13,700 nucleotides of DNA from a virus, in UHGV virus genome UHGV-1812412; one strand, written 5' to 3'. A model generated the notes under the pieces. The model did not search any database, had not been told where the DNA came from, and saw only the letters and a list, made by a program, of their open reading frames with translations. A program made the position numbers and the translations under genes. Positions within the stretch are counted from its first letter, which is position 1. Each line of letters opens with the position of its first letter. Of the stretch, positions 4,066-13,700 are shown piece by piece.

Positions 4066-4401
4066 TTATTGTGCAACACGCAAATCGCCATTGCTGGCAG
4101 CGATAACAGCGGCTAAGCCTTCTTTATCCACGTAGGCCGGATTGATATAACAGCCCTTGTTGGCAACAACGATAAAAGCATCACCAACCTCAGCACGTTC
4201 TACAACCAGCAGCGGAGTTTTATCGGTGTGCGTTTCTTTAACGAAGGTCTCAACCTCGCCAGCCTCAGTCACCACAACAACAGTGCCAGCCGGAATCTCA
4301 GCTTTAACTTTGTTTTTAATTTCAACGTCGCGAATACTAAATTGCTCATCTGCGGCGTATGAAATGATGTGTCCGCGTGTGCGGATAGTCATATCTCTCA
4401 T
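4066..4401 (-). CDS. Putative head decoration / capsid accessory protein, 111 aa
   Basis: ORF ends 11 nt before the capsid start; AGGTGA 6 nt upstream of its ATG. Size and position directly upstream of the capsid gene fit a decoration or cement protein. Function is by context only. Confidence 0.45.
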   Translation of the reverse strand: MRDMTIRTRGHIISYAADEQFSIRDVEIKNKVKAEIPAGTVVVVTEAGEVETFVKETHTDKTPLLVVERAEVGDAFIVVANKGCYINPAYVDKEGLAAVIAASNGDLRVAQ

Positions 4402-5215
4402 TTGATCACCTGCGATTTAAATTAACTCCCCTCAAAGAGTTCCGGTATAACCTCTCAAACCACGACGCTCGGGCCGAAAAGTTATGCCGGAAATCTAAAG
4501 GGAAATTGATACAAGGAGAGGGAGATAGCCCCGCACCGTCCAAGCGGGGGCTATTCCATATGGGGAAAACCAACAACAGTTGGCTGATAGTTCACAGTAT
4601 GGGTTACTAGAGAGCACTATCACGAAAGACACTCCCCCGAATCAGTTCAGGCTGCGGTCACATCAGCGGGGAAATACCTTTCGGGATAGCTACCCACACA
4701 GAAAACCCGCAAAAGAAAACTGTGTGGATAACTAGCCCAATAGGAGAATTAATCGACCACTCAACGATGATCAGGGTAGTGTTATTTATAAGGCGGCACC
4801 GCTACCTGGTCGCCTTTACTTTGGAGGAAAATACGGCAAATCAAGATCTTCTCACAATGATATTGACGCCATACTGTATATTATATCAGTATTTACTCAC
4901 ATTGTCAACACCCTGATTATATAAATTCTAATAATTAGCGTAGTAACGGTATTTTCAGACCTCTATCAATCCCATCAATACGTCACCCCACCCTTTAGAT
5001 GCATACATCCGACCTACTTTGTAGGCTTGGCGTACTGCCAAGGTCGCAGCTATGCGACTCCTATCTATCACCACTTTATAAAGCTTGATAGATATCCGTT
5101 GATCAATATCAATGTTTTCCGGGGATTTACCCGGCTATAGTTCGAATCAAGGAAGGGGAGCATTGATAGCACCCAACCGAGCAAACAAATCAACTTCTCG
5201 CAAAAGGTTATAGAT

Positions 5216-5339: not shown

Positions 5340-5420
5340 ATGGGCAAAGGAGGCAAAGCATTTTTAATAGGTCTGGCAGTCTTAGATTTTGTATTAATCA
5401 TCATTGAGCGGAGTTTATGA
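5340..5420 (+). CDS. Micro-ORF, 26 aa, single hydrophobic helix (MGKGGKAFLIGLAVLDFVLIIIERSL)
   Basis: ATG at 5340 with GGAGG 6 nt upstream; its stop overlaps the ATG of the following HTH gene (ATGA at 5417-5420). Confidence 0.25.
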   Translation: MGKGGKAFLIGLAVLDFVLIIIERSL

Positions 5421-5677
5421 CGGGAACTAAAGATATTAAGAGACTGAGGGAAGAGCTGATAGCTGAAATTAAAGCGAAGGCAAAGCAAATGGAGATAGCC
5501 GCACAAATGGATGTAGCGGAACAGATGTACAAGATGGTTGAGGAGGGAACGCCACGACAGGTTATAGCAAAAACCTTCGGTGTGGGGATCGCCACCGTGC
5601 ACAGAAGGCTGAAAGCCTATGCCGACTACCACAATATCGAGAGAAAGGAGGATGGGAGATTTAAGAAGAATAAATAG
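5417..5677 (+). CDS. Small DNA-binding protein with resolvase/invertase-type helix-turn-helix, 86 aa
   Basis: Segment TPRQVIAKTFGVGIATVHRRLK matches the pattern of the Hin/Gin-type C-terminal HTH (PRQ-LA-FG-G-ST--R, recalled from memory); N-terminal half predicted coiled coil. No catalytic recombinase domain present. Confidence 0.65.
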   Translation: MTGTKDIKRLREELIAEIKAKAKQMEIAAQMDVAEQMYKMVEEGTPRQVIAKTFGVGIATVHRRLKAYADYHNIERKEDGRFKKNK

Positions 5678-5769
5678 TGTGAACAGTCCAATAGGTTAAG
5701 CTCTGGCTCATAGCCCTCGCCTCGAGGGTGTTATTAACTAAATTCAACTTCTCGCAAAGGGGTACCATT

Positions 5770-6291
5770 ATGTTATTTCAGAAAGATAAAGAATCAGAAA
5801 ACAAAAAGCTTTTTAAAGCAATAGTAAAAATGTTCTTTCAGTACACTGCAGCGTTTTTGATAGCCGGGCCTTGGTTAATGGCTATCTGTTTTTACCCTGC
5901 TACCTTGTTTATTGGCAGTAGCAAGTTCGGCGATGGCCCGTTTCATGTGGATATTGGTTTTATAGATTCTCTCCTGATCCGTCCTATAAATGCTGTTCTC
6001 AATGCTTTCTACTTCCCCACTAGTCTAGAGGGGTGGTCGGTAACCTGGGGTGTTTTAGGCTTAGCATATGTATATTGGTTGGTTGGCTTTTTGTGGGGTG
6101 CAATCTGTGCTCTCCTCGATATTGATACAGGATCAAGCCGTAGGAGTGGTGGTAATAATAGCGGAGCGGGTGTATATGCACACGTAGGTACCAGAGGGGT
6201 AAGTATCACCGCAGGTACCCGATTCGCTGGCGGCTGGCTGAGCATAGGCAAACGCGGCGTTAGTTGGAGAAAAAGCAAAAAACTGTTCTGA
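5770..6291 (+). CDS. Membrane protein, 173 aa from ATG 5770, with at least two hydrophobic helices and a Gly-rich basic tail containing a repeated G-x-R-G-V-S motif
   Basis: ORF track starts at a GTG at 5728; the ATG at 5770 has AAGGGG 7 nt upstream. Hydrophobic helices FFQYTAAFLIAGPWLMAICFYPATLFI and WGVLGLAYVYWLVGFLWGAICALL; tail has GTRGVS and GKRGVS. Terminator directly downstream. Confidence 0.6.
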   Translation: MLFQKDKESENKKLFKAIVKMFFQYTAAFLIAGPWLMAICFYPATLFIGSSKFGDGPFHVDIGFIDSLLIRPINAVLNAFYFPTSLEGWSVTWGVLGLAYVYWLVGFLWGAICALLDIDTGSSRRSGGNNSGAGVYAHVGTRGVSITAGTRFAGGWLSIGKRGVSWRKSKKLF

Positions 6292-6298
6292 CCTACCA

Positions 6299-6322
6299 GG
6301 GGGGCCATCACGGCCCCTTTTT
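6299..6322 (+). terminator. Rho-independent terminator after the membrane protein gene
   Basis: GGGGCC (6301-6306) / GGCCCC (6312-6317) stem with 5-nt loop, followed by TTTTT (6318-6322). Confidence 0.7.
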
Positions 6323-7636
6323 ATTTATCCCTCAATTAACCCCTATTTATCCCCTATTTAATGCCTATTTATTGATTTAATCCGTTTTATGCCACAACCG
6401 CCCGGTTGACAGAGTAAGAGAGAGGGTGTAACCCTTTTTCGTAATACCAATAAAATCAATAGCTTAGCTCAATTGGCCTTTTCTCTGTTTTTGTCAAATT
6501 TAACATACCCTCAAAAACTGCAAAATCTGGCTGCAAGATTATCTGCAGCTGGATTTCTTACACCTCAATTTGTGGTATCACCCTGACTAGTTTGTGCATA
6601 AAATGAACAGTTTTTAACATTTCCTCCTCACCTGGTAACCACACAAAAAGCTAAAAACGAGGCACAGATAATCTTAGAGGCCTGTTTTCTTGTTATCACT
6701 CTGGGAACGTCGTAGAAGTGATTTTGATGAAAGACGGCCTACCCTATTACACCCCCATTTTTTGTTATCACAATTGCATCCTGTGCGGTATATGACTATG
6801 TGCTGAAAGCGGTCTCAGGTGTTGGTGTCAGAAATATCCATTAGCGGTATTTGAGCTTATGGGTAACTCGTCTGAGGTGCCAGGCAGGCGCTCCCCTACC
6901 TCCCCTTTTTCTTCTAACAATTCTCAAATATCACACCACTGCCCACCACGTTGCTATTATGTTAATTCTTAAGCTTTGCTGTATGTTGTGCACATTATTT
7001 ATTCAGATGCATGTACGTAAATTCTGTGCCCACTGATCATGATTTTTAAATCAGATTTTGTAGTGCGCTTTATTAGTGTAGATAAGATCTATTATGTTAA
7101 ATGCAATTTTCCCAACCCTTCAAATCAATGACTTACATGTAAGCATGCACTAACACCCCACACAGCACATTAGACGTGTAGATGTCTATATCCCACATTT
7201 TTGATTGTTTTGTAGTCATTCCCCTGATCATTTAACCAGTATAGTTTGCTCTCTGCAGACCACAAAATCGGAATTTACATCTGATTAACATAATCTGTTA
7301 GCATGATCACCATTACCCACACAACAATAACCCCATGCAAGCCTCTTCAGGCAATTTATCGGCGTGTTGGTGTGAACAGTCTTTCATGTTCTTTATGTAT
7401 TCATGACTGCAAGGAATGTATTCATTGGCCTGTGTGGGGGAAGGATGGACTGCCTCAGGGGCCATACTTATGATGCCCGGTCAACATAGCTGTTGATAAA
7501 ATCAATGGGTGTTGATCTGCGTATTTCCCACACATGAGAGGAAATCAAAGCAAAGAGAGAGGAGAGAGGTTTGTTAGTCAAAATAGGTCAATTGACGGCT
7601 AATACAGAGTAAAAAATCAGATGCAATCACTCCCCC

Positions 7637-7819
7637 ACCTGTTGGGATTTCCCTCACCTGTATAAGAATACAGTCATACTTTCCCGTTATACGGTCATAC
7701 ACATGATGGAATAACCTGTTGGAATTTCCCACAGGTTCAACCATACATAAGCATTAACCTGTTGGAATTTCCTACTACTACCTGTCGGTATTTCCCACAG
7801 GTACCTGTTGGAATTTCCC
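7637..7819. repeat. Iteron array: five direct copies of a 17-mer ACCTGTYGGWATTTCCC
   Basis: Copies at 7637-7653, 7714-7730, 7757-7772, 7780-7796, 7803-7819; the last three are exactly 23 bp apart. Two copies are followed by the inverse ACAGGT. Partial copies of the ATTTCCCACA core at 7522-7534 and 8321-8333. Confidence 0.75.
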
Positions 7820-7911
7820 ACACTAATAGATAAAGAGAATAGATTAATAAAAAGATACCCCCCTAACCCCCCAGGGGGAATGGGGAGGGATCAGAGAGTG
7901 GGGAAGGTTTT

Positions 7912-8014
7912 CTAGATGTACGTAATTGGTACACTTAAAGGTGGATAATATGAGGCTAGATGTACGTAATTGGTACACTTAGAATATTCTAGATGTACGT
8001 AATTGGTACACTTA
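7912..8014. repeat. Three identical 26-bp direct repeats CTAGATGTACGTAATTGGTACACTTA, each with an internal dyad TGTAC-N7-GTACA
   Basis: Copies at 7912-7937, 7956-7981, 7989-8014; start-to-start spacing 44 and 33 bp (multiples of about 11, same helical face). A near DnaA box GGTGGATAA lies at 7940-7948. Confidence 0.8.
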
Positions 8015-8339
8015 AATCACATAAGTTATTGAGTTTATTAGAAAAAGTGATTCACCTATATATACTACTGATTCGCCTCCGCTCATCATTAGTATGGTGT
8101 AACTGATTCATGCTTCGCTTACGCTCACATTCATCTACTTACACCCCCTTATCTGAATTGAACATTCCCGTCCAATCCAGCTAAGAGAATTGATTGAACA
8201 TTACCTAACATCCGTTAGCTAACATTCTAATCAATTAACTACTTAATCACTTCCACACCTTCCGGTGGTGCCAAGTGTCCTGGCATGGTGGGAAAAGATT
8301 CTGCCGTTTTAGGTAGAATTGATTTCCCACAAATAGTAA

Positions 8340-8660
8340 GTGTCGGCCCTTCAATGTCACTCTCCTATGAGGGGGAGAGATGACGGGCCTCCTGTGTGGG
8401 TGAGTATCGGAGCAGTCTGTGAAGTATGAGCAGGCTGTGAGATACGCTACTGTATATCTGCGTAGAACAGCCTCCGCTGTTTACGCTCTTTGTGTGGGTC
8501 CGGCGAATGCGACAGCATGAGGCCCACATGTGGACCGCTGCCGAAAGCTTGCCAGCGCCGGAAGGAGGCGGCAAAGAGTCTCCCGCGCGGTTGTAGGTCC
8601 GCGCCGGACTTTAACTTACAGTTAAACCCTTCGGGCTTGTGCGGGTGCACGCACACATAT
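8340..8660. other. GC-rich, hairpin-dense non-coding island, candidate structured RNA or DNA processing site
   Basis: Sharp rise in GC relative to AT-rich flanks. Local stems include TCTCC/GGAGA (8361-8379), GCGCGG/CCGCGC (8585-8604), TTTAAC/GTTAAA (8609-8625) and GTGCG/CGCAC (8639-8654). The only ORFs are two overlapping Arg/Pro/Ser-rich minus-strand frames without RBS. Confidence 0.3.
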
Positions 8661-8843
8661 ATATAAAGGATACACTCATAAATCGAAAATAAGCGCGATT
8701 TTAGCGCCTACAGCGAGATAAACTATACTCCCTAGTGTAATTGCATTACCTGATGCTTAAATCGCGTTGTAGGGCCTCTCATGAGGTTTGAGTTTAACAC
8801 CCTCCAAAGTTTTAACAAAAAGTGCTCTCCCTCCATTGTGGGC

Positions 8844-9013
8844 CATTGACAATCTTATTGCATAAATGCTATAAGTTATTCTGATTTTGACACGGTAGGG
8901 GCCATTAATAATGCTTACCCCTTTGCTGTGGACTTGCTTGTGTCTGCTGTGCAGGCTATGGCACCTATAGCTCGCCTAAATGATAATGATTCCTATTGAC
9001 AATTGGTTGTCAA
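8844..9013 (+). promoter_or_regulatory. Operator-like 9-bp palindromes ATTGACAAT overlapping -35-like TTGACA hexamers; candidate tandem promoters
   Basis: ATTGACAAT at 8844-8852 and 8995-9003; the second is part of an 18-bp dyad TTGACAA-TTGG-TTGTCAA (8996-9013). Possible promoters: TTGACA 8846-8851 + 18 nt + TATAAG 8870-8875; TTGACA 8996-9001 + 17 nt + TAAGAT 9019-9024. Confidence 0.4.
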
Positions 9014-9059
9014 TATGATAAGATTATAGATAGTGGGAGAAACAGATCCGGAGGTCAAC

Positions 9060-9209
9060 GTGGAACTGAGCGACGCTATAGCGATCATCAACCTGGCTGT
9101 ACTGTGGTGCGGTGTTGCCTACATAGCCGGAGTAACTGCAATCGACAACCTTGAAGAAAAAATGATAGATAAATACAAAAAGATTGTTGACAATCTCGCA
9201 AATAGCTGA
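9060..9209 (+). CDS. Small hydrophobic protein, 49 aa, GTG start
   Basis: GGAGG at 9050-9054, 5 nt before the GTG at 9060; product MELSDAIAIINLAVLWCGVAYIAGVTAIDNLEEKMIDKYKKIVDNLANS has one predicted transmembrane helix. Not in the supplied ORF track (below the length cutoff). Confidence 0.35.
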   Translation: MELSDAIAIINLAVLWCGVAYIAGVTAIDNLEEKMIDKYKKIVDNLANS

Positions 9210-9215
9210 TAAAAT
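9182..9215 (+). promoter_or_regulatory. Sigma70-type promoter with an operator dyad over the -35
   Basis: -35 TTGACA (9187-9192), 17-nt spacer, -10 TAAAAT (9210-9215); dyad GATTGT-TG-ACAATC (9182-9195) overlaps the -35 and shares the TTGACAAT core with the upstream palindromes. Confidence 0.5.
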
Positions 9216-9263
9216 ATAAATCATAGGGTAATTCTCAGCATGTGAATTTTCCTTAAACAGACT

Positions 9264-9295
9264 AGCGGGGCTTGTCTTGAGTCCCGTTTCTTTTT
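9264..9295 (+). terminator. Promoter-proximal hairpin plus U-tract (attenuator or 3' end of a short RNA)
   Basis: CGGGGC (9266-9271) pairs with GTCCCG (9281-9286), with one G-U pair, around a 9-nt loop, followed by TTTCTTTTT (9287-9295). Sits about 50 nt after the predicted start site and 44 nt before the next ATG. Confidence 0.5.
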
Positions 9296-9338
9296 AAACC
9301 TACATCGCACAGGCGGTGAGCCAACAGGAGATTGAATC

Positions 9339-9548
9339 ATGGCTAAAACTGGACCGATCAGCCAGCTGGTAGACTGGACTACTGACGAAATCGTCGAGAA
9401 CGTGCTTAAAGGTAACTTTCGAAAAACTTCTGTTTATGCATTTATTCGAAAACACAAAGGAGAATATCCACACATTGAAGCGGCAATAGAAAAACTTAAC
9501 TTTATTAAACTTGAGCGCCAGCTGGAAAGATATAAACACCTACTTTGA
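9339..9548 (+). CDS. Small protein, 69 aa, possibly DNA-binding
   Basis: AGGAG at 9326-9330, 8 nt before the ATG; first gene after the promoter/attenuator. No family recognised. Confidence 0.6.
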   Translation: MAKTGPISQLVDWTTDEIVENVLKGNFRKTSVYAFIRKHKGEYPHIEAAIEKLNFIKLERQLERYKHLL

Positions 9549-9584
9549 TAAAAGGTAACCGTAACCCGGTAAGAGGTAAACATT

Positions 9585-10454
9585 ATGAATATTAAGTCTG
9601 TTTTTAATATAACTTTAAATGATGATCCTAGTATCCTTTTGCTGCCTATGCTCATAAACAAATCTGGACTATTAAAAAAAGGCGACGCAAGGGATATTTA
9701 TATTTATATGTGGAATATTTACTATCTCAACGCTAAAAAAGAGGCCGCCAAGGTGTTCAGTAAGAAGACTAAAGGAAGAAGCCTCAGTCAGGATATGAAA
9801 GATTCCATAAGAAAAGAATGTTTTGCAATTAATGATAAAGATTCCTGTGTGGAAATCTCTTATAAGGATATAGAGGAAAGAGTAGGAATATTACGACCAC
9901 ACGCAGTAAGGGCAATTAAAAAGCTGGAATCTGAAGGAATTATCACCTGCCTTAAAAAAGGCAATAAGCATAACCCTTATGCATCATGGCAAATTAATGT
10001 CGGAATCTTTGAAATGATGGAAAGAGTAGGGATTGAAAACCTCATTGGGTGGGATCTCTTAAAACCATATTGGAAGAAAGAACAGGAAGCAGCCGGAAGA
10101 GGGGAGGGGGATAAAGCCCCGCAAGAAGCCCCAAAACAGGCCGCACAGCAAGCTAAAAAGGCCGAGGTGGTGCAGTTCCCTTCTACGAAAGATAAGAGCG
10201 TCAGAATCGAGCGTAGCTCTCATCCTGAAAGTGTGACAACGTCACCTGTTAAGACAAACAATGAAGGGCCAGTGAAAGAGATACCCAAAATTATAGACAT
10301 TTCTTCTTTTATGGCAGATGAGGAAGATATGCAAGATGAGTGGTGGACACCTCCAGAAAATAATGATTATGGTTATGATCCTTATGGCTATGATGAAGAT
10401 GAATATAGCCCGTTTGAAGATGAATATATAAATGATTCCGCTATCCCTTATTAA
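9585..10454 (+). CDS. Winged-helix DNA-binding protein, 289 aa, with a Lys/Ala/Gln-rich linker and an acidic, aromatic C-terminal tail; candidate replication initiator or regulator
   Basis: AAGAGGT 7 nt before the ATG. Segment ISYKDIEERVGILRPHAVRAIKKLESEGIITC has the classic winged-helix pattern seen in replication initiators and MarR-like regulators; C-terminus DEEDMQDEWWTPPENNDYGYDPYGYDEDEYSPFEDEY. Function inferred. Confidence 0.75.
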   Translation: MNIKSVFNITLNDDPSILLLPMLINKSGLLKKGDARDIYIYMWNIYYLNAKKEAAKVFSKKTKGRSLSQDMKDSIRKECFAINDKDSCVEISYKDIEERVGILRPHAVRAIKKLESEGIITCLKKGNKHNPYASWQINVGIFEMMERVGIENLIGWDLLKPYWKKEQEAAGRGEGDKAPQEAPKQAAQQAKKAEVVQFPSTKDKSVRIERSSHPESVTTSPVKTNNEGPVKEIPKIIDISSFMADEEDMQDEWWTPPENNDYGYDPYGYDEDEYSPFEDEYINDSAIPY

Positions 10455-12212: not shown

Positions 12213-13700
12213 ATGGCAATGAAGGAAGTCGCCAGACTAACAAACGTTATTTACTGGGATTCTGATAAATCCAGCTGGCGAAAAGAAGTTAAACGGCTTG
12301 AGGATTATAAAAAATCCTGGAAGAAAGCCACCGACGATATAGCTAAAGCTGATTTTAAATCTAATCAGGCTGTGCTCAGAACACAAAGAACACGCGCTAA
12401 GGTGGAAGAGCAGATTGCCAGAGCTCAGAGGAAACAACAGGAAGCACAGAAGAAACAACGTGCTCAGGCTGTCAGCCGTCTGACCGGGGGCAACAATGCC
12501 GAACTTAACTCTATGCGCAAGTTCTATCAGCAGCAAGCCAGAGAGGCCGCCAGACAACAAAAACTGTTAGATCGTAGTGTTGGAGATGTTCAGCACAGAA
12601 AAGCACGTGTAGGGGCCAACAGTGCACGAATTAGCGGCATGTTTGATGGCTCTATCGTCTCCCAGTTCCAGGGGCGCATTCAAAGAGTTAATGCTGATTA
12701 TGCTAAAGGGGCTATAAACCTGCAGACCTATAATCAGAGGATGGCTCGGCTCAGAGCTGAAATGAAGATGGCAACAGCAGAGGCCGGAAAATTTCAGAGC
12801 AGACTGGATAAACTGGCATCAGGTGCCAGCAAGGTGCATGACAACCTGGGCAAAATCAACTCCACACTAGGCAAGATAGCCATTGGCCTTACTGCCGCTG
12901 GCTGGGGTGTTCAGCGTGCTGTTAGTGGTGCTATGGGTAGCCTTGCAGATCGCAACAGTGCCTACTTCGGTTTAATGGCTCAGAACAAGGATGATAAAGC
13001 CAAGACTGATCAGCAGATGGCTTTTATCAAGAACACAGCCTACACCTATGGGATGGATGAGCGGGAGATGCAAGGGGGCTACATGCGCTTTGCTGCAGCT
13101 ACTCCCACCATGAAGGAATCTGATAAGCAGGCTCTTTTTGAGGCTATGGCTATTAAAGGTCGCTCAGTGGGTGCTACTGGCGAGCAACAGAACAGGGCGC
13201 TTGTTGCGGTCCAACAAATGGCTTCAAAGGGAAAAGTTATGGCAGAAGAGCTGCGGGGCCAACTGTCAGAAGCCTTTGCAGGCTCACAACAGGATTTTCA
13301 ACAGGCCGCTATTGATGCCGGAATCATCAAGAATGCCCAGGAATTCGATAAAGCCCTTAAAGATGGCAAAATCACCCTGGACAAACTTCTTCCTTCTCTG
13401 GTGAAAATCTGGGGTGCAGCAAAAGAAACTAAAGCTTTTGCTGAATCCATGAAACAACCGGAAGTAGCACTGCAGCGCATGAAAAACAGCTTTAACGAGC
13501 TGGCGATTCAGTTTATGGGTGTTGTGGATCCTGCGGATGGCGTTATTAGCTTATCTGAATCTCTGATCTCCATCTTCGAAGACCTCACCACTGATATGGA
13601 CGGCAGCGGGAGCGCGGCAAAACAGTTCGGTGAGGCAGTCGGGGCTGCCATGCGTGAGATCATGTATTGGGTAGGCTTCGCTAAGGGATATATTGAGGTC
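12213..13700 (+). CDS. Partial CDS (3' end outside window): N-terminal part of a phage tail tape measure protein
   Basis: ATG at 12213 with GAGGTG 7 nt upstream; frame stays open to the window edge (496 codons). Missing from the supplied ORF track because it has no stop in the window. Coiled-coil N-terminus, then NRALVAVQQMASKGKVMAEELRGQLSEAF, which matches the conserved tape-measure domain pattern. Confidence 0.8.
   Translation, partial: MAMKEVARLTNVIYWDSDKSSWRKEVKRLEDYKKSWKKATDDIAKADFKSNQAVLRTQRTRAKVEEQIARAQRKQQEAQKKQRAQAVSRLTGGNNAELNSMRKFYQQQAREAARQQKLLDRSVGDVQHRKARVGANSARISGMFDGSIVSQFQGRIQRVNADYAKGAINLQTYNQRMARLRAEMKMATAEAGKFQSRLDKLASGASKVHDNLGKINSTLGKIAIGLTAAGWGVQRAVSGAMGSLADRNSAYFGLMAQNKDDKAKTDQQMAFIKNTAYTYGMDEREMQGGYMRFAAATPTMKESDKQALFEAMAIKGRSVGATGEQQNRALVAVQQMASKGKVMAEELRGQLSEAFAGSQQDFQQAAIDAGIIKNAQEFDKALKDGKITLDKLLPSLVKIWGAAKETKAFAESMKQPEVALQRMKNSFNELAIQFMGVVDPADGVISLSESLISIFEDLTTDMDGSGSAAKQFGEAVGAAMREIMYWVGFAKGYIEV

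Follow-up and report, generated by a model that had tools for sequence, protein, structure and literature searches.

Predicted tandem extended −10 promoters and a conserved terminator in the rightward control region of a 13.7-kb plasmid with phage structural genes

The stretch of DNA analysed here (the window) is 13,700 bp long and closes on itself, since an ORF for a 716-aa tape-measure protein starts at 12216, crosses the junction and ends at 660. Circular E. coli plasmids of 13.2–13.7 kb match the whole window at 91–95% identity. The rightward arm of this element carries a 49-aa gene, tm49 (9060–9209), followed by p69 (9339–9548), an O-like replication initiator (Rep, 9585–10454), four small proteins and the tape-measure protein (12216 to 660). 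The leftward arm encodes a 111-aa protein, the major capsid protein (4060–3011), an 86-aa protein, a Dit-like tail initiator (2513–1683) and a neck/tail-completion protein (1686–1228). Between the arms lie an 86-aa HTH_7 protein (5417–5677), a variable membrane protein (5728–6291) and ~2.5 kb of non-coding DNA with iterons, namely five copies of the 23-bp ACCTGTTGGAATTTCCCACAGGT at 7637–7825 and three 30-bp repeats at 7910–8016.

Identity to the proteins of rV5, a virulent phage of the Vequintavirus group, is 24% for the capsid protein, 45% for the neck protein, 51% for the tail initiator and 27% for the tape-measure protein, and Rep matches PHROG 391/678. In eight relatives, PGAP annotated neither an integrase nor a terminase or portal protein, and none of these, nor a CI/Cro-like protein, was detected in the element itself. 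All relatives identified came from E. coli or metagenomes. The element is probably a plasmid-borne satellite of rV5-like phages. Literature searches for this plasmid family, or for a satellite of rV5, returned nothing relevant and no published description, and the host element is a more unusual and interesting object than the promoter layout discussed below. An initial annotation of the locus had suggested an immunity-type switch. The idea of temperate-phage immunity is inapplicable here, because the element combines the replication of an iteron plasmid with phage structural genes.

Our comparison set consists of eight complete relatives, further partial and metagenomic relatives, and one divergent contig, L016, whose capsid protein is 81% identical. 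A metagenome scan contributed five close relatives. A protein search for distant relatives found only relatives at least 81% identical, and relatives of the capsid protein were absent from the genome-contig and viral-contig collections. The relatives are mostly >90% identical, and this closeness limits the power of footprinting. Variability within the family is highest in the Rep gene, whose alleles share 29–74% identity, and in the iteron region, as would be predicted if each initiator is matched to its own origin. The allele of the p69 C-terminus seems to change along with that of Rep.

The region 8846–9296 would form the rightward transcription-control region of this 13.7-kb iteron-replicating element. 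TTGACA occurs at 8846, 8996 and 9187, and is followed by TATAAG after 18 bp, by TAAGAT after 17 bp and by TAAAAT after 17 bp, respectively; we refer to these sites as P1, P2 and P3. A fourth TTGACAAT, missed by the initial annotation, lies on the opposite strand at 4908–4901 and belongs to a predicted promoter, PL. A TGn motif directly precedes the −10 hexamer at all four sites. We defined the full architecture as a perfect TTGACA, a spacer of 16–18 bp, TGn, and a −10 with at least 4/6 matches including A2. Four instances were found in the window, where 0.05 would be expected, and 300 simulations never gave as many. Exact TTGACAAT likewise occurs four times against 0.76 expected (four or more in 3/200 shuffles), and the four architecture sites are exactly the four TTGACAAT sites, P1, P2, P3 and PL. 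A −10 with both A2 and T6 at a spacing of 17 ± 1 bp is present in P2 (TAAGAT), P3 (TAAAAT) and PL (TATAAT). The proposal of three tandem rightward promoters thus agrees well with the sequence, as the predicted sites are near-consensus, far beyond chance and followed by real genes.

P1 (8846–8875, plus strand) consists of TTGACA (8846–8851), an 18-bp spacer, TGc (8867–8869) and TATAAG (8870–8875). Its −10 hexamer is present at the predicted distance but lacks the conserved final T, which is why a strict promoter scan omitted P1. The spacer contains a small inverted repeat, TTATtgcATAA (8856–8866). P1 is best regarded as an accessory promoter: it sits on a cassette of ~95–130 bp that is present in 11 of 16 relatives and absent in the other five, and it would therefore be an optional upstream promoter carried by an indel. 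Downstream of P1, reading the sequence gives a putative mini-ORF, MLTPLLWTCLCLLCRLWHL (8911–8970, plus strand), which would encode a hydrophobic peptide of 19 aa; in relatives with an in-frame 21-nt deletion the alignment leaves 12 aa. The left edge of the control region is marked by a terminator-like hairpin on the minus strand (8689–8711). The sequence of its stem differs among relatives while the pairing is kept, and the T-run is degenerate in some, so that its assignment as a terminator is tentative. Nearby, an inverted repeat GTAAT-tgc-ATTAC (8738–8750) is conserved in all the relatives despite mosaic flanks. Both of its arms are changed in L002, giving GCAAT-tgc-ATTGC, and imperfect variants occur in other relatives.

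P2 (8996–9024, plus strand) is the predicted core promoter of tm49 and would serve it family-wide. It comprises TTGACA (8996–9001), a 17-bp spacer, TGa (9016–9018) and TAAGAT (9019–9024). All 15 elements that are readable there retain both hexamers and the extended −10. Together with P3, P2 forms an island of 90–95% conservation between variable modules, and both promoters are preserved wherever a relative has sequence for the region. The spacer of P2 holds a second box (9006–9014), 11 bp from the first, and the elements fall into three haplotypes here. Haplotype a (ATTGACAATTGGTTGTCAAT) occurs in the window, L001 and L018, and its second box reads GTTGTCAAT. Haplotype b (ATTGACAATTGGTTGACAAT) is that of the majority of elements, with GTTGACAAT as the second box. 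Haplotype c (ATTGACATTCTGTTGACAGT) is found in L009, L017, L020 and L022, i.e., in 4/15 elements, and has the boxes ATTGACATT and GTTGACAGT, which keep both hexamers but have both CAAT arms broken, the first A of the arm being lost in both copies. The inverted partner at 9005/9006 described by the initial annotation is thus a feature of the window haplotype, whereas in most relatives the repeat is direct rather than inverted. Similarly, the reported 18-bp dyad does exist as a dyad of 18–20 bp at 8995–9014 in haplotype a (3/15 of the elements readable at P2), but not elsewhere. Haplotypes b and c differ at 4/7 non-hexamer positions and at 0/12 hexamer positions (Fisher p ~0.009). The pattern suggests selection for the hexamers and the extended −10 rather than for the dyad.

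The second P2 box supplies a −35 on the minus strand. A candidate leftward promoter crossing P2 (8986–9013, minus strand) would consist of TTGACA (9013–9008), a 16-bp spacer and AATCAT (8991–8986), with 10/12 matches. Its −35 reads TTGTCA or CTGTCA in the other haplotypes, so that the candidate is strongest in the window haplotype, and we regard it as tentative. The second box is retained in every haplotype although it is not a rightward −35, which hints at a role beyond P2 initiation, for instance as part of a leftward promoter or as a binding site. Leftward transcription from 9013–8986 to the hairpin at 8711–8689 could yield an RNA of ~290 nt, with a T-run that is poor in some relatives. A Fur box, AATGATAATGATT (8976–9000), in the AT-rich stretch upstream of and overlapping the P2 −35 was considered and rejected, because its 13–15 matches out of 19 were no better than those of shuffles.

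The 49-aa protein encoded by tm49 (plus strand) has a GTG start, a GGAGG Shine-Dalgarno sequence at 9050–9054 and one predicted transmembrane helix. Family searches gave no match to tm49. Yet by the pattern of its variation tm49 is a real gene: among its 12 DNA alleles the variable sites are distributed 17:6:5 over codon positions 3:1:2, 11 of the variable codons differ by synonymous changes only, hardly any variation affects the predicted transmembrane core, and PGAP annotates the gene in relatives. P3 (9187–9215, plus strand) would be a promoter embedded in the last codons of this gene. It has TTGACA (9187–9192), a 17-bp spacer, TGa (9207–9209) and TAAAAT (9210–9215), or 11/12 matches plus the TG. 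Its −35 box coincides with the tm49 codons GTT GAC AAT (V-D-N), and TGA, the stop codon of tm49, doubles as the TGn of P3. The −35 and −10 of P3 are identical in all relatives. Since P3 lies in the last tm49 codons, this conservation is inseparable from coding constraint. In most relatives P3 displays the decamer GTTGACAATT, which is also how the −35 region of the trp/tac promoters reads.

The positions of the ATTGnCAAT palindromes on which the initial annotation was built, 8844, 8995, 9005 and 9186, were borne out within 1 bp. ATTGACAAT is exact at 8845–8853 and 8995–9003, and the versions at 9006–9014 (GTTGTCAAT) and 9186–9194 (GTTGACAAT) have one mismatch. Each copy had been said to overlap a TTGACA with a −10-like hexamer 17–18 bp downstream; this is true of P1, P2 and P3, but not of the copy at 9006, which has no usable rightward −10. 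Four palindrome copies within 370 bp were reached in ~2% of the Markov simulations. The degenerate palindrome with at most one mismatch was found nine times in the window against 10.1 expected, and is therefore not enriched. Likewise, ATTGCAT as a second operator motif was found six times against four expected. The strong signal is the promoter architecture, and the palindrome cluster follows from the promoters.

Much of the symmetry is a property of the −35 hexamer. TTGaCAa is self-complementary, and the palindrome is therefore largely built into the hexamer, to which the symmetry adds at most three bases. As a control, we inspected 24 near-consensus promoters of rV5: 14 of them read TTGACA-A, which means that a 7-bp symmetry is common at plain promoters, and four read TTGACA-AT. 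The latter low number also led us to reject mimicry of helper promoters as a source of the boxes. A palindrome that overlaps a −35 is not in itself evidence of an operator, because a consensus −35 plus A is already palindromic. What does recur is a 3′ AT, common to all four promoter boxes of the window and to PL in L016. Its recurrence, which tells against our preferred reading, has a probability of ~8 × 10−4 if the sites are independent, at the 17% rate from rV5, and could reflect shared ancestry of promoter cassettes, chance, or an unseen factor. The ATTGnCAAT elements would accordingly be the −35 hexamers themselves plus this recurrent AT, with no demonstrable operator family.

This bears directly on the central proposal of the initial annotation, that one dimeric repressor occludes all three promoters. 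In its fullest form, a single dimeric repressor encoded by the element would bind TTGNCAAT boxes and occlude the −35 of P1, P2, P3 and PL, and thereby silence the element until it is removed by a helper phage or a different signal. The excess of TTGACAAT noted above is in agreement with such a factor, as these sequences are always at promoters, also at PL in the divergent L016, and the two P2 boxes are 11 bp, or one helical turn, apart. Consensus promoters on plasmids are often or usually repressed, and unrepressed ones would be costly, so repression is plausibly needed. However, haplotype c breaks both CAAT arms at P2 while the HTH_7 helix and the p69 alleles remain the same as in haplotypes a and b, and hence there is no co-variation between the boxes and these proteins. 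Moreover, only two of the five boxes in the window are perfect 9-mer palindromes, and the outer 5′ base is not conserved, being A, A, G, G and G in the window and C in L009 (P1) and L016 (PL). In most elements a direct repeat replaces the dyad at 8995–9014, the degenerate palindrome shows no enrichment across the window, the symmetry of the boxes is indistinguishable from that of the hexamer itself, and the P3 box is also under codon constraint. With the CAAT arms of P2 broken in haplotype c and co-variation lacking, the proposal of one common repressor appears unsupported by the sequence, and we consider it unlikely.

If such a repressor existed, the HTH_7 protein would be the likeliest candidate, as the sole well-conserved recognisable DNA-binding protein of the element. 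It resembles the DNA-binding domain of Hin, is 94–100% conserved and has an invariant recognition helix, which is kept even in L016 at 62% overall identity. Its homologues, encoded on more than 100 contigs in public assemblies, occur only within the element family, with none in phages. Near its gene, a 23-nt element, CCTTTTGCGAGAAGTTGATTTGT (minus strand, 5210–5188; area 5187–5210), is exact in L016, and a related copy is found on the opposite side of the gene, at 5741–5764. In the window haplotype, but in no other, the P3 spacer again contains the 9-mer TCTCGCAAA (9194–9202). Possibly, the CCTTTTGCGAGAAGTTGATTTGT and TCTCGCAAA elements are a site for HTH_7.

Another candidate for a box-binding factor is Rep itself. 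Iteron plasmids commonly autoregulate rep through operators, as in RepA of pSC101 and RepE of F, and the promoters do lie upstream of rep, so the boxes could be half-iteron operators by which the O-like initiator represses its own promoters. Yet neither the 23-bp nor the 30-bp iterons share sequence with the boxes, the same box also heads the capsid operon, and Rep alleles and iterons vary among the relatives while the boxes remain constant. This lack of co-variation, together with the lack of similarity to the iterons, contradicts an origin of the boxes in Rep and its iterons and excludes Rep as their binder; we attach hardly any probability to autoregulation of this kind.

Directly downstream of P3, between this promoter and p69, lies a predicted intrinsic terminator or attenuator (9264–9296, plus strand), the second conserved feature that had been missed by the initial annotation. 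It has a GC-rich stem of ~10 bp (9264–9288) followed by TTTCTTTTT, and is located ~45–75 nt 3′ of the predicted P3 start and 55 nt after the tm49 stop codon. A terminator is kept here in all relatives; L009 has a different hairpin and T-run at the same place. Our scan listed no promoter-like sites between the terminator and p69 (9297–9338). Therefore, p69, rep and the tail genes can be expressed only by transcription past the terminator. Every rightward transcript would thus meet 9264–9296 before it reaches p69, the O-like Rep and the tail genes, and the output of the operon is probably set by read-through, i.e., by attenuation, and not by promoter firing alone. From these sequence features we infer, with moderate confidence, that 8846–9296 comprises tandem extended −10 sigma-70 promoters that are active, are gated by an attenuator and have no repressor in common.

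How transcripts would pass the terminator is a matter of two readings. The read-through may simply be a constitutive leak, and regulated antitermination is a possibility. Family searches among the proteins of the element found no Q- or N-like antitermination protein, and local alignment of the leaders of P1, P2, P3 and PL gave scores within the null range for a shared cis element. The first gene beyond the terminator, p69 (plus strand), yields an AlphaFold2 model of four helices with a pLDDT of 89.7. This confident model matches no fold, which led us to reject p69 as a recognisable Cro/HTH fold, and p69 has no match in Pfam, PHROG, NCBIfam or PADLOC and no phage homologues.

Alternatively, the region might consist of separate cassettes. 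P1, P2, tm49 and the terminator would then be a self-contained unit for a small membrane protein (toxin-, exclusion- or holin-like), P3 and the terminator would delimit a gene whose product is an abundant two-hairpin RNA of ~75 nt, and p69 and rep would be expressed by leak-through. This would be consistent with the conservation of tm49, which is transmembrane, has its own Shine-Dalgarno sequence and is followed after 55 nt by the terminator. It also fits P3, the best of the rightward promoters, whose predicted transcript would form two hairpins and then stop at a strong terminator, and a weak antisense promoter-like site is present at 9190–9162. However, a role for the short RNA is difficult to see. 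It matches no Rfam family, and it could not be a countertranscript, because it runs in the sense of the rep leader and shares its 5′ sequence. We also searched for a countertranscript or antisense partner of the P3 RNA, and complementarity to the rest of the element does not exceed 9–10 nt, which led us to reject the short RNA as a trans-acting or antisense regulator. Furthermore, p69 and rep would have no other promoter in the scan. In our view, separate cassettes are rather improbable, and we retain attenuated tandem promoters as the preferred reading.

The fourth predicted promoter, PL (4880–4908, minus strand), has TTGACA, a 17-bp spacer, TGa and TATAAT, and matches the consensus at 12/12 positions. 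An untranslated leader of 479 nt separates it from the capsid operon downstream. The PL leader (4395–4908, minus strand) folds far better than shuffles (z = −5.4) and is 91–99% conserved. PL of L016 keeps TTGACAAT and TGaTAAAAT with a diverged spacer, which is weak evidence, as it comes from two lineages only. The leader is partly conserved in L016, where a canonical terminator occurs just before the first capsid gene. PL has the same promoter design as P3 and, in addition, a long structured leader.

This shared design invites a broader, more speculative interpretation. The four TTGACAAT/TGn promoters, with the structured or terminator-bearing leaders of P3 and PL, might act as a helper-responsive switch of an rV5-like phage satellite, a scenario that we put forward with considerable doubt. 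The element would idle as an iteron plasmid that makes only short, terminated RNAs. Infection by a helper would then switch on the structural genes of the element (capsid, neck, tail initiator and tape measure), either by antitermination or by freeing the promoters from a factor bound to TTGACAAT. If the helper remodels region 4 of sigma-70, the extended −10 common to all four promoters might keep them active; rV5 carries a gene annotated as an anti-sigma factor.

Several elements of this layout are familiar from other systems. The predicted promoters are like known extended −10 sigma-70 promoters, and like the −35 of trp/tac, in their TTGACA, spacer of 17–18 bp, TGn and near-consensus −10. 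In contrast to typical extended −10 promoters, a single 13.7-kb replicon would carry four, and three of these form a tandem array spanning no more than 370 bp. The pR′–tR′ region of phage lambda, which produces 6S RNA and is controlled by Q antitermination, similarly has a strong promoter, an efficient terminator within ~75 nt and virion genes downstream, and the PL leader is comparably long. It differs from our element in that we detected no Q-like protein and no leader element shared by P3 and PL, and in that the replication genes come first here. The order pR–cro–(tR1)–O–P of lambda and lambda-dv resembles the rightward arm in its promoter or promoters, small protein, O-like initiator and leader terminator. 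Unlike lambda-dv, the element has no tripartite operator, p69 has no detectable Cro/HTH homology, and the iterons are located outside rep.

The satellite P4, with its PLL and PLE promoters and CI RNA, is another system for comparison. It is likewise plasmid-capable, has tandem promoters, and shares premature termination in the leader as the likely control. However, the element has no CI-like RNA, no complementarity of the seqA/seqB/seqC type and no P4 proteins. Moreover, the helper of P4 is P2, whereas the likely helper of our element is a virulent rV5-like myovirus. The attenuation of rep in pT181, pIP501 and pAMbeta1 is also similar, as a terminator in the rep leader sets the expression of the initiator. 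Yet those plasmids use an antisense countertranscript, and we found no convincing antisense promoter or complementary RNA in the element.

Tandem strong promoters followed by an attenuator are thus a familiar regulatory layout. Its practical value is that P1–P3, PL and the 9264–9296 terminator are the likely control points of a family of 13–14 kb E. coli plasmids, and they offer starting points for the study of plasmid quiescence and of the response to helper phages.

Other parts of the element also deserve attention. The non-coding segment 660–1228 separates the tape-measure and neck genes, which converge on it. Across nine genomes it is ~95–100% identical, which makes it more conserved than most of the coding sequence, and phage records contain nothing similar to it. 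It might serve as a packaging site or encode an RNA. The segment 6300–7650 is a ~1.3-kb stretch without a convincing ORF, 89–99% conserved in the relatives, with 11-bp repeats at 6322–6372, no Rfam match and no match to phage DNA. More generally, Rfam and tRNA scans of the whole window gave nothing above noise, and DNA similarity to phage records was absent for 8600–9600, 640–1240 and 6300–7650. The slot at 5728–6291, downstream of the HTH_7 gene, holds the 187-aa membrane protein in the window and unrelated genes instead in several relatives. It had no PADLOC match, and its varying content resembles that of an accessory or hotspot position. Finally, the plasmid record NZ_CP043822.1 (39,610 bp), which includes L006, contains three to four matches to the element and is about three times the unit length; it looks like a head-to-tail trimer of the element.
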